From Microbotryum violaceum (Eukaryota), in assembly GCA_001244265.2 (NCBI GenBank), contig CDLV01000006.1, forward strand, positions 2,666,001-2,730,000: a DNA stretch of 64,000 nt, written 5' to 3'. A program made the translations under genes and the position numbers. The notes beneath the pieces were generated by a model. The model searched no databases. It was not told the DNA's origin and was given only the letters and a program-made list of their open reading frames with translations. Shown here one piece after another: positions 5,185-11,700 of this stretch; the first letter of the stretch is position 1, and every line of letters begins with the position of its first letter.

Positions 5185-5697
5185 CGTGGGTGTTCGTGGG
5201 TGTTTTGGACGAGACCCTTTTTGAGGCTACGTCCGGGAACGAGCGTGGGGGGAAAGCAGCGACGAGTGGAAGTGAGTTGAATTTCGGCGATACACGCGCG
5301 TGGAGAGAGAAGCTGCGAAGTGGGACCGAGTCACTACTGATTACGCCGGGCAGCTGAGCTGAACACAGCCGAGCGCAGATCATGATCTCATGGTTTTCAG
5401 TTACTTTGAATGACTACTCTAGTCTTTCAAGATGGTAAGATAACTGGTCACTCTCCCAAGATCTGTCAGGGGGCTGTTCCTGCTCTCTCTCTAGAGTGGG
5501 GCACGATTGATGGTATTGGCACAATAGAAAAACAAAGTGAAACTACTTGGGATCCGGTACGACGTTCTCACACGGTCCAAAGCCAACATGAGGGAGAGGA
5601 TCATAAAAGAGTCAGTTCACACTGAATCAATGAAACGTGCACGGGTGAGGACCAATCGGGATGTAAGAAGGAAGAGAAAAAAAAAAAAAAAAAAAAA

Positions 5698-5815
5698 AGC
5701 GTCGGCCTCGAAAGATGGTTAATGTGTTTTACAGACATTTACGGTCGGCGCCGACTAAAGCACCATTAGTGACCGCTGATCTCAATTTGGGTATATTTGT
5801 TCATCATCATTCGCG
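5698..5815 (-). ncRNA. Box C/D snoRNA with two 25S rRNA antisense elements
   Basis: Box C ATGATGA at 5810-5804. Guide TATACCCAAATT (5795-5784) is complementary to LSU AAUUUGGGUAUA. Guide ACCATCTTTCG (5719-5709) is complementary to LSU CGAAAGAUGGU. Variant box D CCGA at 5705-5702, with terminal GCG/CGC stem. Lies in a GTGAGC(5896)...TTCAG(~5622) intron. Confidence 0.75.
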
Positions 5816-6336
5816 TTTTTTTTTTTTTTTTTTTTCCTCTTTGGGGAGGTCGTTGGGTCTGGTCTGGTGGAGGGGGAGGGGAAAGGAGGTGCTCACCTTG
5901 CGAGGGCGGGCTCGAGTCCCCGTTAGCAGGCATAGTCAGAACAGTCGGGGGAAAACGAATTGGAAGGTGAAACAAGTCGAGTCAGAGCGGGAAGGGGTAA
6001 GTGATGCTGGTCGATGCCGAATGGAACTCCAGCGAGGCGATGTGGGTCAACGGAGGAAAAGAGGCGAAAGGGCGCCCGCCACCCAGCCTCTCGCCTTGCA
6101 GTTCACCCCCGCCTGGTCAAAATCGTCATTAGCGGGCCAAAATGGCGACTGACTCGATTTTGTCCGAGGCGCGTGGTCGATCGCACGCCAGTCGTTCGCG
6201 CGGAGTTCCGTCCTTTCCTCTTCGTCAAGCCAACCACCACTAACCCACCACCCTCTCTCATCAGTCAGTGGGTCGTGTTCGTGGTGTTTAGCCTCGTTGT
6301 GTTCTACTACTGACCTCTGCACTATCCGTTGCAGAC

Positions 6337-8320
6337 ATGGTATGTCTCCGCCGCCTGCATTCCACCTCGACCTGCGACTTTTCTCTTCCACTACGCTCTT
6401 CCCTCGAGGATGCCTAGACACCTCGACCTCCTCTCGACTCGATCACTCCATCTGAGGGTGTCCAGCTCGATGTTTAGGATGGTCTGCGTGTGCTGGACAG
6501 TGATGTATGGGTGTGGACGTGGGTGATCGCGTACGGGCGAGCTGGCGGGCTGGCGGGCTGGCGGGCTGGCGGGCTGGCGGGCTGGCGGTAGGCGTGGCTG
6601 TGGTCTCGCAAGCGCAGGGCTTTTTTCGCCTTGCGCACGAATCCGACCCCAGCCCGACTCACCCACTCCCGTACGCCCTGACTCGCACATCACGCCTACT
6701 CGCTCGCCTCCTCACCCCGCGCGACTCTAGTGTCTTTCAACCCCTCTATCCCACACATCAAAACCCCTTCAAGAGTCATCGCCTTCGTTCGACCCAGATG
6801 GAACCACCAGAAATGTCCGTCAGACCCCTCGGCGAGACAAGGTCCTCTCCCTTCGCATCGCGCAGCGTCTCTGGGCGGTCTGAACTACTCGCTTCTCCAC
6901 GGTTCAGGCCCTAGAGACCTCGCCGCTTCTTTGCAAGGCGGCCTAGTCGTGCGTGTGTGGCGGACATGGTTCTGTCGACAGTGTCGTTCGTTCATCGGCA
7001 GATTCCAAATAGGCAACTATCGAAGCGATATCGCTCCCTTCCTCCTCGAGGTTGGCGCTTTTCCTTCACTTTTTTTTTTTAGGATTTCCGAAGGCGATCG
7101 ATTTCTTTCAACCTTTTGATTTGGGACCGGCGTTCGGAGCGGGGCATGGCGGTGGGGAGCTGAGGGAACGGTGGCCGGGCAAAGGAAACGCGAAGCGATC
7201 ATCACATCGTCGTCGTTCCCCCCCCTCCCCCGTTCCTTCTCCTTCTCTCGGTCGTTGCTCCGTTCCTTATTCCTCTCTTGTCCAATCATCTTGTTTGCTT
7301 GACTTCATCCCGGATCCGATGACCAATGCCTCTCTCCTCTCCCCTTTCTCTCTGCTGTGTATTCTTCGCTCGATCAGCCCAAGGCCACCAAGTCCGGAAA
7401 GAAGCCCGCCCCCGCTCCCTACCCCGGAGCCAAGGCCGCCGTTTCCAAGAAGAACCCCCTCTTTGAGCGCAAGCCCAAGAACTTTGGTATCGGTTCGTCG
7501 CTCCTGGTCCTTTTTTCTCTTGTTCTTTTGGCTGGGCCTCACCCTCCACTTCCCCCTTCTCAGGCCAATCCGTCAAGCACACCACCGACTTGACCCGCTT
7601 CGTCAAGTGGCCCGAGTACGTTCGCCTGCAACGCCAAAAGGTCATCCTCAACCAGCGCCTCAAGTGCCCCCCCGCCATTGCCCAGTTCCAAAACGTCCTC
7701 GACAAGAACACGGCCACCCAGCTCTTCCGCCTCTTGAACAAGTACAAGGGCGAGACCAAGCAGGAGAAGAAGGTCCGTCTGGAGCAAAAGGCCGCCGACC
7801 TTGCCGATGGCAAAAAGTCGGACGAGTCCAAGAAGCCCTTCTTTGTCAAGTCGGGATTGAACGTGAGTGGTATTGTGCAGTCGTCTTGGTCGGATCGGAC
7901 CGCGTAACTCATCTCTGCGTCTATGGGGTTCCTCAGCACGTTGTCGGTCTCGTCGAGGCCAAGAAGGCGTCGCTCGTCATCATCGCCGACGACGTCGACC
8001 CGATCGAGCTCGTCGTCTTCCTCCCCGCTCTGTGCCGCAAGATGGGCATCCCCTACGTCATCGTCAAGGGCAAGGCTCGCTTGGGTGCGGTCGTCGGTCG
8101 CAAGACCTCGGCCGTGCTCGCGTTCGGCGAGGTCAAGTCCGAGGACAAGGCCGAGCTCGCCAAGCTCGTGTCGGCGATCAAGGCCAACTACACGGACAAG
8201 CACGAGAAGACCAAGCACCAATGGGGCGGCGGAATCCGAGGGACCAAGTCGTACGCCAAGTTGCAAGGTCGGGCCAAGGCTTTGGGCCAGGACCCCAGCA
8301 AGGTTTCCAAGACCGTCTAA
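6337..8320 (+). CDS. RPL8: 60S ribosomal protein eL8 (L7a/L8)
   Basis: ATG 6337-6339 is followed by a GTATGT donor. Further exons 7378-7492 ([15 protein letters not shown]...[13 protein letters not shown]), 7564-7862 ([16 protein letters not shown]) and 7938-8320 ([33 protein letters not shown]7Ae domain). Confidence 0.96.
6540..6588 (+). repeat. (GCTGGCGG)n octamer tandem repeat, about 6 copies, in RPL8 intron
   Basis: Directly visible tandem repeat. Confidence 0.9.
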
Positions 8321-8736
8321 GTCTTTACTTTACGGTTTGCGTAGATCTGAAAAAAAGGCTTGTCGATCTTTTGTACTCTCCCTTTCGACGGTCCTCACCA
8401 GGGCGGTCATGGCCTCACCCCTTATTTTTTCGTTTGCTTGCAACGCTGTCCTGAGCCCTCGCACTCTATATTTGTATGACGACCTATCCTCAGTGCTCTT
8501 GTTGCAGTCCGAGAACGTCCTCTGAGAGATCTAGATCGAGAGAGGTCAGAATTTTGTACATGCCTAAAGCTGGGAGTCATTGCGCTGGCTCTGCCACTCG
8601 CGCGCCCGGTTGCGCTCACTCCCCCCCCACCACCCACCACCTGACCCACTAGTGCGTCACGCGTCATCACAGATCGAGCTCGACCACCTCGCGCACCCGT
8701 GCGACCGACCAGGGTCCCAACACCCCAGAGCCCAGG

Positions 8737-11700
8737 ATGATTCCCCCTCTTCTACCCCTCCAGGCACTCACTTTCCTCTCGCTCCTCGTACCCACAACCT
8801 ACGCCTTCGAACAACATGACCCAGCTAATCCCCAGCGGTCGTCAAGATCGTCGATGACGGTCATCTCGACCCTGGTGAAGAGGGAACCCGGACGATGTGC
8901 GATGAGATCCTCGTGTGGGAAGAAGGGCGTTTTCGGAGGTGGTTTACCTTGTCCTTTTGATGGGGAAGCGCAAGAGGTGTGTTCTAATCGTAACGCATAC
9001 GTGTTCCCCTTTCAAGAGGAGGGAAGACCATCATTGCTCATTTTTGGGGGATCTTCTTTCATAGGATTCGGACCCGACTTACCTCGCTGTTTTGGCCCAA
9101 GTGTGTGGTGAAGCGTTTCCGAAAAAGACTTGTTGCGATTTAGAGCAGTTGCAGACGTTGCAGAGTAGTTTGGCACAGGCTGAACCGTTGTTGGCGACTT
9201 GTGAGTTTTTTGCGCTTTGGAGTTCGATCGATCCTGGTTGGCGATGTATGAGGGGGGGGGGGGGGGTTGAGAAAGAGGATAGAAGCTGATGGGTTGTGGG
9301 TGGATGTTTATGTTTTGGCAGGTCCGGCATGTAGAAACAATTTTCGGCATTTTTATTGCAGCTTCACCTGCTCGGTTAGTTCGGTTCCCTTTCGACCCCT
9401 CCCCAAAGAATGACGTTAACCCTTCCACTCACTCCTTCATCGCACCCCTCTCCTCGGTAATAGCCGGACCAATCTGTCTTCGTCAAAGTGACCGAAACGC
9501 AAAAACTCAAGTCTCCCGATGGGGAAGAAAAGGACGCGGTCAAGAGTGTCGATTTTGATGTTGCGGAACGATTTGGCAAAGGGTTTTACGATAGTTGCAA
9601 GGACGTCAAATTTGGCGCGACGAATGGGTATGCCATGCAGTTCTTGGGAGGTCAGTAAGAGTGTTTGATTTGGTGATTGGTTTTGGAAAGGGACGCTGAA
9701 CGAGTTCGGGTGCATCGTTACAGGTGGGGCGAAGGATTATCTAGCTTTCTTGAGATACATGGGCCAGGAACGAGCACTCGGTTCGCCCTTTCAAATCAAC
9801 TTTCCCAATCATTCCTCGAGCCCTTCGCTTCTCCTTGACAATTCGCCCATTCAATCGCTCGATAACTCGACTGCTGTCCCATTCGATGATTCACCCTTGT
9901 CGTGCTCGTCATCGGACATCAACGCTCGATGCGCATGCCCTGACTGCCCTTCGACATGCGCCATTCTTCCACCCCTCCAATCGCCCGCCGAACGATACGC
10001 TCACCGGTGTCGCGTAGGCAAAATGTCATGCTTCGCCTTCTCTCTGACCATCCTCTACGCCGTTGGACTGGTCTCCTTCTTCGTTCTTGTCGCATTGAAG
10101 GATGTCCTTTGGTCGAGGCAGTCTTACCTCAAATCCATCACCACGAACGACGACGACGGACTTAACCAAGGCGCTTGGACGAGATTGAGGAATAGGTTTT
10201 CTTTCACCGAATGGACTTCAAGACCAGATACGAACGACTATGATCGAGTTCCGATGGAGGATCCTTTGACGGGCGATTATGAAGAGTCCCCTCGAGTACT
10301 TGGTGGGGTTAGTCCCTTGCCCGGTTCAACTTCTTCGACCGGTCAATCGTCGTCGGGCAATAACTCGCTTGTGGGGGCAACGTCGACACAAAATGCTGCG
10401 GAGAGGGAGACGGGAAGGGGTCGACCCCCTTCAGGTGGAACGATATCTTCAAACCTTTCTACCTCGTCATCCTACCCTCGGAATCGATCAAGTGTCGGAG
10501 CGTCACTCCTCGATCCCAATTCGGATTCGACGAACCCATTCCTCCAACCACGAACGTACAAACTCAACACCATCCTCTCACAGCGCTTTTATCGACTCGG
10601 CCTCTTTTGCGCTAAATCACCTTACCTCACTTTATCGATCGGTTTGATCTTGTGTGGTTTGATCAATATAGGTTGGGACAAGTTCGAAGTCGAGAAGGAT
10701 CCGGTGAGGTTATGGGTCCCTCATGGGAGTACGACCGAACGACAGAAGGAGTTGTTTGAATACGACTTTGGACCTTTCTATAGGACCGAACAGATCTTCA
10801 TTTCTAGGGCACCGACGAACCTTGCGGTGGAAGAGGTGCAGCTGATGAAGTGGAGGGCGGTTGATGAACCGGTGTTGAATTGGGAAGTGTTGCAATGGTG
10901 GGCTGGGGTGGAGAAGGAGATTCGAGGCTTGCAGAGTGAGAGGGATAATGCGACCTTGGCGGACGTGTGTTTCTCACCCGCGACCGAACCGGAACGACCC
11001 GTCGACGCTTCACTTTGCGTCACCCAGAGCTTCATGGGTTATCTTGCTGATTCACTGCAGGGGGTGAGCGAGGAAACTTGGGCGAATACGCTCAATCAAT
11101 GCGCGACCACTCCCGCGGCGTGTTTGCCGGCAAGTGGACAACCGATCAACCCCAAACTTGTGTATGGCAAAATTCCCGATGGCGAGGCAGGTGCAATCGT
11201 TCGTGCGGATCAAGCGAGGGCCTTGGTCGTCACCTATGTCGTTCGCAATTCGCTCGATAAGGAAATCATCGCCAAAGCTCAATCTTGGGAGGCCAAACTT
11301 TTGACTTACCTTCATGATTTGGCGCGACATGATGGCGAAGCGGCGAGATTGGGCCTCGAATTGGCTTTTTCGACGGAGAGCAGTCTGGAGGAGGAACTGA
11401 ACGCTTCGACCAATACGGACGTGCCTATCGTCGTACTATCTTATGTGTTCATGTTCCTCTACGTTGCGATTAACCTTGGTTCGTCGGGAGCGGGCATCCT
11501 CAAGGTCGTGGGGAGGACTTTACTCTTCCTCGTCGCTTCGTTCGTACAAGTCTTTCGTCGGGCCGTGTCGAGTGACAGGAGGAGGACCGAGGCGCTCGAA
11601 CTGTCCGTTTCTGGATCGACATTGGGCTTGGGCGACTATATCCGTCGGCAGGTGCTCGTCGATAGCAAGTTCTTGCTCGGTCTGTGGGGCATCATCATCG

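Follow-up and report, generated by a model that had tools for sequence, protein, structure and literature searches.

Introduction

The gene for ribosomal protein eL8 (RPL8) of Microbotryum violaceum features a first coding intron of 1038 nt, whereas the other introns of the gene are 71, 71, and 74 nt long. The gene lies in a 64,000-nt stretch of contig CDLV01000006.1 (positions 2,666,001 to 2,730,000), which is referred to here as the window, and all coordinates are counted from its first letter. A preliminary description of this DNA proposed that eL8 is under splicing feedback in its first coding intron and that the feedback works through a poison exon at 6731-6948. The idea of splicing feedback is kept here as the favored reading, but the cassette exon is not kept as its means. 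The evidence points instead to an RNA element at the 3' end of the intron.

Gene and transcript structure

The gene call in the preliminary description is borne out by an open frame of 266 amino acids, formed by exons 6337-6339, 7378-7492, 7564-7862, and 7937-8320, and by the match of the last exon to the 60S L8/L7a chains of solved ribosomes. One eL8 copy was found in the 33-Mb assembly, that of the window, and its nearest named proteins are from Microbotryum, with 99% and 96% identity. Transcript structure was compared with contigs from four runs of 20 listed (X1, X5, X6, and X10), which are assembled contigs taken as RNA by guess. Run X5 comes from a close relative, with 23 differences in 878 exon bases, and its contigs have no cover over 6340-6699 or over exon 1. 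The contigs of X6 are shallow, join across no intron, and may derive from DNA.

An RNA-like X1 contig joins position 6263 to four further letters and these to 7377. This join indicates a 5'-UTR intron at 6264-6334, a 5-nt micro-exon that carries the ATG, and the 1038-nt intron at 6340-7377, and it backs the 3' end of the latter. The gene layout given previously was right about the long intron but overlooked the 5'-UTR intron and the micro-exon. The transcript features are as follows:

6237-6263, forward strand: 3' end of the non-coding first exon, from the X1 contig join
6264-6334, forward strand: 5'-UTR intron of 71 nt, from the X1 contig join; donor, CTGAC, and CAG are present
6335-6339, forward strand: 5-nt micro-exon with the start codon (6337-6339), from the X1 contig and the open frame
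6340-7377, forward strand: first coding intron (1038 nt), parts of which are kept in RNA-like contigs (sequence, frame, and contigs)
7375-7377, forward strand: productive 3' splice site, from the X1 contig join and the reading frame
7378-7492, forward strand: eL8 coding exon (frame and contigs)
7564-7862, forward strand: eL8 coding exon (frame and contigs)
7937-8320, forward strand: last eL8 coding exon with the stop codon (frame and match to ribosome chains)

Micro-exons of 2 or 3 nt are found at the same place in the orthologous loci L003, L004, and L006, and in L003 and L004 the ATG is split across an intron. Database proteins of relatives often begin at intronic ATGs in this region, which is probably a mis-annotation in which the micro-exon was overlooked. 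The window itself has an AUG, within the bulged strand of the element described below, that is in frame with the eL8 exon (7319-7377). The five letters of the micro-exon recur at 6964-6974 and are followed by GT, which resembles a second donor context. Upstream of the gene, a long A run (5676-5699) and a long T run (5817-5835) lie about 120 nt apart and could pair.

A conserved element in the eL8 introns of fungi

Orthologous loci were collected from metagenomes in a scan with one exon, and the best 80 of 333 confirmed loci were kept, many of which are near-duplicates. The ATG is joined to the exon in 9 of these loci and 4 begin too late, which leaves 67 that are informative. All 67 loci with intron sequence upstream of the exon (80 examined) feature a bulged strand of the form Y-(A/C/G)AU-GA-Y within 150 nt of the exon, with the exception of L002, where a limit of 650 nt was used and the strand lies about 570 nt away. 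In 60 of the 67 there is also an upstream UAG whose G opens a stem of at least three pairs with the bases before the bulge; in L052, L053, and L060 the pairing partner is farther upstream than the nearest UAG. The contigs of the other seven begin 7-294 nt upstream of the motif. By chance, the window is expected to give 0.18 bulged strands per 150 nt and a paired one in about 6%, and the motif was found in none of 33 next introns, which are shorter.

The letters U-A-G and A-U-G-A are invariant in 35 of 35 hand-picked distinct loci. By their nearest named proteins (Phenoliferia, Sporobolomyces, Rhodotorula, Testicularia, Acaromyces, and Ceratobasidium), and not by a protein tree, these loci span the Microbotryomycetes, Ustilaginomycotina, and Agaricomycotina together with ascomycete-like loci. 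L029, L054, and L067 have at most 75% identity to any of those named proteins, and the chains nearest to L067 are 7r81 and 7olc, which we take to be from filamentous ascomycetes.

An alignment of 27 orthologues showed that the stem and an outer helix pair in 92.5% of cells and that 17 cells are changed on both sides, for a paired structure drawn from the same 27 rows. Neither figure was reached in 500 shuffles, and slid controls pair in 35-56%. The covariation comes from the outer stem, and the 3-bp core has no double-sided change in this alignment. Folding of single orthologues placed the stem in the minimum free energy (MFE) structure in 21 of 35. Two covariance models (R1 and R2), built from the 27 compact orthologues, recovered, at E < 0.02, 13 of the 20 and 6 of the 10 eL8 loci that had been set aside for testing; both missed the window copy and the long-loop loci L002, L004, L005, and L025, and one of them also missed L013, L023, and L026. 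The element sits on the branch point or the acceptor, inside the transcript of eL8 itself; in 31 of 43 loci the first YAG is no more than 13 nt from the bulged strand, and in the window it is 56 nt away. A conserved, Kt-15-like element at the 3' end of the intron is well supported across fungi, and its presence in M. violaceum is probable.

Resemblance to the ribosomal site Kt-15

Kt-15, the kink-turn of helix 15, is described as the site bound by L8e in archaeal and eukaryotic ribosomes (PMC3553981). In the account of PMC4005666, it keeps the G1b.A1n pair while a G-U-A triple replaces the second G.A pair, and its folding is reported to require protein (PMC4382518, PMC5061560). The Rfam consensus of eukaryotic large-subunit rRNA features a hairpin, a 4-nt linker that ends in UA, and a G that opens helix 15, and on the opposite strand a C, a 3-nt bulge, and GA. 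The intron element shares the UA-G on one strand and the C-NNN-GA on the other, and in many orthologues it also shares a hairpin four bases upstream. A hairpin followed by 2 nt and then UAG is found in 18 of 43 introns, compared with 12.6% in shuffles. A canonical stem with a 3-nt bulge and G-A is present in 60 of the 67 informative orthologues and in the window. An A opposite G1b with a U before it was found in 35 of 35 loci; since partners were chosen by the UAG triplet, what this count tests is whether a pairing partner exists. A second helix is possible in 21 of 41 loci, in which an upstream GCUGG can form base pairs with the acceptor-containing CCAGC, and taken singly it reaches p < 0.05 in 3 of 41. 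There are differences as well. The third base of the bulge is U in the introns and A both in the rRNA consensus and in the rRNA of this organism, whose own linker ends in GA whereas that of the consensus ends in UA. The window copy also departs from the rRNA site in its 235-nt loop and in having no adjacent hairpin. In layout, the predicted element is similar to Kt-15, the eL8 site in large-subunit rRNA.

The invariant U at the third bulge position, unlike eukaryotic rRNA, raises the possibility that the ligand is Snu13/15.5K or another L7Ae-family protein, or that the intron encodes a snoRNA-like RNA, with no eL8 feedback. U4 and box C/D kink-turns have U at this position. A second, standard kink-turn pattern lies upstream of the element in 16 of 41 loci, compared with 49 of 820 shuffles, and a preprint describes intronic kink-loop RNAs in mammals that are bound by 15.5K and affect host splicing (10.64898/2026.08.03.742641). 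Against this reading, the base before the non-bulged A is U and not G in 35 of 35 loci, which is the Kt-15 arrangement, the element is located in the eL8 gene, and the second kink-turn pattern was not found upstream of the element in the window. An Rfam search of 5500-9500 gave seven matches, none below E 0.76 and all far below gathering scores, and the same search on 10 + 5 orthologous loci gave nothing to E 1; no curated snoRNA family (C/D or H/ACA) was matched. The reading with another ligand or a snoRNA-like RNA is considered improbable. The second kink-turn hairpin, with GA and a stem on one side and the stem and NAU GA on the other, lies about 50-100 nt upstream of the element in agaric-type introns and was seen in L014, L018, L045, L046, L048, L059, L068, and L071.

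The element in the window

The copy of the element in the window is predicted to consist of two strands that are brought together by a hairpin:

7080-7087, forward strand: predicted non-bulged strand, with U7080, A7081, and then G7082 onward pairing with 7317 downward (orthologue comparison and folds)
7312-7324, forward strand: predicted bulged strand, with stem 7312-7317, bulge 7318-7320, G7321, A7322, and C7323 (orthologue comparison)
7051-7055, forward strand: tentative, weak partner of 7323-7327 in a second helix (5 bp, p 0.10; among the differences listed, X5 changes 7053)
7121-7272, forward strand: predicted spacer hairpin that brings the two strands together (z -3.2 for 7120-7269; folds)
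7299-7303, forward strand: candidate branch point (YTRAY, with 7302 as the predicted branch base) of the productive splice, in the 3' arm of the element (motif near the bulged strand)

The window stem has six pairs. Two of them are double-sided changes from the consensus, with A-U and G-C replaced by G-C and A-U, respectively. Alignment with MAFFT placed the window UAG within one column of the UAGs of its close relatives L004 and L005, which are also long-looped, and the 235-nt loop of the window copy is filled by a strong hairpin. Counting against this copy, a chance partner in a 150-nt stretch is expected at about 1% for 6 bp and 6% for 3 bp, and a second UAG with a 4-bp match is found at 6475. 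Homology of the window copy to the conserved element is considered likely. The three core pairs are present in both the MFE and the centroid folds of 7075-7330, with a z of only -1.41. Forcing them costs 1.1 kcal/mol in 7060-7330; wider windows raise this cost to 7.8 and 12.9 kcal/mol and give the pairs a probability of about 0. The copy has 24 unpaired bases in place of the adjacent hairpin and is without a convincing second helix, and it is predicted to be only marginally stable.

This instability in wide folds fits a reading in which the conserved letters are splice signals and the stem tunes splicing without a protein ligand, and in which the pairing of the window UAG is due to chance. The UGAC resembles a branch point and the UAG an acceptor, and in 8 of 43 loci there is no further YTRAY close by. 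However, the other 35, including the window, have a separate YTRAY at most 31 nt from the bulged strand, branch points require neither the invariant A before UGA nor a distant pairing UAG, and the motif is missing from the next introns mentioned above. It is unlikely that the element acts without a ligand.

Two inverted repeats overlap this region. A perfect 10-bp repeat (6778-6787 with 7089-7098) competes with the element in the fold of the whole intron, and an X5 change at 6784 looks uncompensated among the differences listed. A 24-nt repeat (79%) pairs 7121-7144 in the intron with 7410-7433 in the next coding exon and so spans the acceptor; its pair probability is about 0.001 in the whole-intron fold.

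Proposed feedback splicing of eL8

The reading that we favor, by a small margin over even, is that eL8 binds the intron fold and blocks the acceptor, which would give retained or upstream-spliced RNA that contains stop codons. In this mechanism the 3' end of the intron would fold into a copy of Kt-15, in which 7080-7082 and the following bases pair with 7312-7317 beside the bulge and the G-A (7318-7322). Spare eL8 would bind and stabilize this fold. The bound fold would cover the branch point in the window, or the acceptor AG in most other fungi, and the 6340^7377 splice would be slowed, which would leave the intron in place or shift splicing to an acceptor farther upstream. All retained and upstream-spliced products would stop early and would be removed by NMD or nuclear decay. 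We infer the in vivo folding of the window copy, eL8 as the ligand, the repression of splicing, and the route of decay; binding, repression, and decay are argued from what is described for yeast L30e and archaeal L7Ae (PMC6298567) and for C. elegans rpl-7A (PMC4937301). For the Basidiomycota and filamentous Ascomycota as a whole, we hold the question evenly balanced whether eL8 controls its own synthesis through a copy of its rRNA site, often accompanied by the adjacent hairpin, over the branch point and 3' splice site of the first coding intron.

Parts of the long intron are present in contigs from X1, X5, and X10, in which both short introns are joined across. Among 30 mRNA-like metagenome contigs, 21 keep the 3' end of the intron, 8 are spliced, and 1 is uninformative; these counts are biased, since the contigs are at least 1 kb long, species with few introns may have contributed some of them as DNA, and short introns that are retained can be lost in assembly. 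Five alternative products (retention, use of an acceptor at 6730, 6797, or 7082, and use of a donor at 6949) all stop within 52 codons.

A related possibility is that the element acts as in eL8 feedback and that the main unproductive product is a splice to 6730, in which the next exon is extended to 6731-7492. The features concerned are the following:

6500-6760, forward strand: predicted long hairpin, including an 8-nt tandem repeat at 6529-6596 (whole-intron fold; z -2.8 to -4.3 in tiles 6480-6709)
6678-6730, forward strand: putative cryptic branch point (6678-6682) and acceptor (6728-6730), from sequence; the AG is absent in X5
6731-6948, forward strand: segment proposed as a poison exon, unsupported as a cassette (contigs, blastn, and shuffles)
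6949-6954, forward strand: putative donor-like hexamer (sequence and X5 comparison)

The CTGAC at 6678 and the TAG at 6730 are the sole canonical internal branch point and acceptor pair of the intron, and internal acceptors or nested introns lie upstream of the element in L004 and L009 and in L045, L046, L059, L064, and L071. The mRNA-like locus L016 is without a 72-nt GT..AG piece that is present in L017, and the element is kept in both. On the other hand, the genome of L016 itself may be without this piece, and L006, L029, and L061 have no internal acceptor listed. In the window, 6730 is crossed unspliced by contigs of three runs (X1, X5, and X6), the cryptic branch point and its pyrimidine tract are base-paired in the predicted hairpin at 6500-6760, and in X5 position 6729 is T with an inserted C, so that the acceptor AG is gone. 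The nested introns and the difference between L016 and L017 are hints of an upstream escape splice, a part that 6730 could play in the window as a species-specific 3' splice site that would give the same MCLSTPLSH...stop peptide. That this is the main product is unlikely. Feedback by eL8 through the element is fairly likely when it is taken together with the variant that uses 6730.

Other features of these introns were seen in the orthologues. Several agaric-type loci have a nested GT..AG intron upstream of the element, and in L045, L046, L059, L064, and L071 the first coding intron features a conserved internal donor after GGATG together with a nested short intron. The mRNA-like contig L014 begins with letters that resemble a spliced junction, of which the upstream side is only 9 nt. 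Past the element, L003 (3763/3764) and L006 (3749/3750), which are Sporobolomyces- and Rhodotorula-like, have an acceptor followed directly by a donor (CAG/GT) and a further short intron; the predicted arrangement is either two introns that abut, the exon between them having zero length, or a site of recursive splicing.

Relation to known systems

Yeast L30e (RPL30, formerly L32) regulates the splicing of its own pre-mRNA through a kink-turn that includes a splice site, as described in PMC6298567 and PMC5640933. It shares with the eL8 element an L7Ae-family ribosomal protein and a kink-turn in its own transcript. The L30e fold is in the 5' leader and also controls translation, whereas the eL8 element is of a U-containing Kt-15 type and is placed wholly within the intron, at its branch point or 3' splice site. 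The kink-turns in the 5'-UTR of archaeal L7Ae are described as unstructured without protein and as folding on binding, which hides the signal (PMC6298567). This protein is of the same family as eL8, and what it blocks is the ribosome binding site and not splicing. C. elegans rpl-7A is the same gene, and it features unproductive splicing that responds to its own product; its introns are highly conserved between species, and the passages cited from PMC4937301 and PMC8047918 name no eL8-binding element. The latter describes AS-NMD of eL8 in animals and 3'-end control in yeast, and for budding yeast it gives no such eL8 element in the text cited. The cited part of PMC8216456 makes no mention of RPL8.

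A further precedent is the rpl7-l8-s3 motif of Li and Breaker (2017, PMC5640933) from introns of L7/L8 genes, which in their description has two hairpins, with a purine-rich stretch that is paired (P2); the species listed there in the text cited are filamentous ascomycetes. The ascomycete-like loci L054 and L067 fold as that text describes, a likeness by description only, and the window copy differs in that the first hairpin is absent. It is fairly probable that the ascomycete form of the element is this motif. The words "k-turn" and "kink" are found nowhere in the text cited from that paper, and no rRNA mimicry is proposed there. In the literature searched, whose coverage leaves out most subscription papers, no paper on an eL8 intron kink-turn was found and rpl7-l8-s3 is named in no other paper. 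The reading of an rpl7-l8-s3-like element as eL8 feedback has probably not been published.

If the proposed mechanism is true, eL8 homeostasis in fungi can be traced to a short, mutable RNA element and its ligand. The orphan motif of 2017 would then have a function, and its range would extend to basidiomycetes. It would also mean that L7Ae-family feedback is reused at a 3' splice site, as a splicing-level counterpart of the archaeal L7Ae feedback.

The proposed poison exon at 6731-6948

The signals on which the poison exon had been proposed are all present: the donor at 6340, the CTGAC at 6678-6682, the TAG at 6728-6730, and the GTGCGT at 6949-6954. They form the only such set in the intron, and inclusion of the 218-nt segment reads MCLSTPLSH up to the TGA at 6881-6883 and shifts the frame (218 mod 3 = 2). 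When the intron is shuffled with its dinucleotides kept, a set of branch point, YAG, and donor arises in 139 of 1000 shuffles if the donor is defined strictly and in 366 of 1000 if it is defined more loosely, and sets of this kind are found in 22 of 128 tiles of the window. The junctions that inclusion would give, 6339^6731 and 6948^7378, were seen in none of the contigs of the four runs, a weak negative, since contigs drop rare forms and none of the runs is known to be NMD-inhibited; contigs of X5 and X6 run across 6948 without a splice. Forms that are subject to NMD would be scarce in such runs.

The comparison with relatives does not bear out conservation of the splice sites and the segment, with the acceptor AG lost in X5. 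Among the X5 differences listed, there are 25 substitutions in the 218 nt of 6731-6948 compared with 4 in 133 nt at 7006-7145, and no change in the donor-like hexamer. A blastn comparison of 6200-7500 with the best 80 of 333 loci gave nothing over 6731-6948, and a DNA search of 6700-7010 in the same genome gave no match besides itself. In these comparisons the segment is not conserved, unlike the introns of C. elegans rpl-7A; the unproductive splicing of that gene under its own control (PMC4937301) speaks for such an exon. In addition, the splice 6948^7378 needs the very acceptor that would be blocked by the conserved element. Because its signals arise in 14-37% of shuffled introns, no junction was found, and the acceptor is lost in a relative, the cassette exon is unsupported, and it is very unlikely that 6731-6948 is included as such when eL8 is in excess.

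Two hairpins were noted in this part of the intron. A hairpin at 6797-6976 was considered as an H/ACA RNA, a reading that was rejected as the ACA at 6978-6980 is altered in X5. A hairpin at 6867-6918, whose folding z is not significant, contains the stop at which the proposed exon would end translation; its X5 counterpart features four substitutions in or at the edge of the loop, and one substitution and one insertion in the stem.
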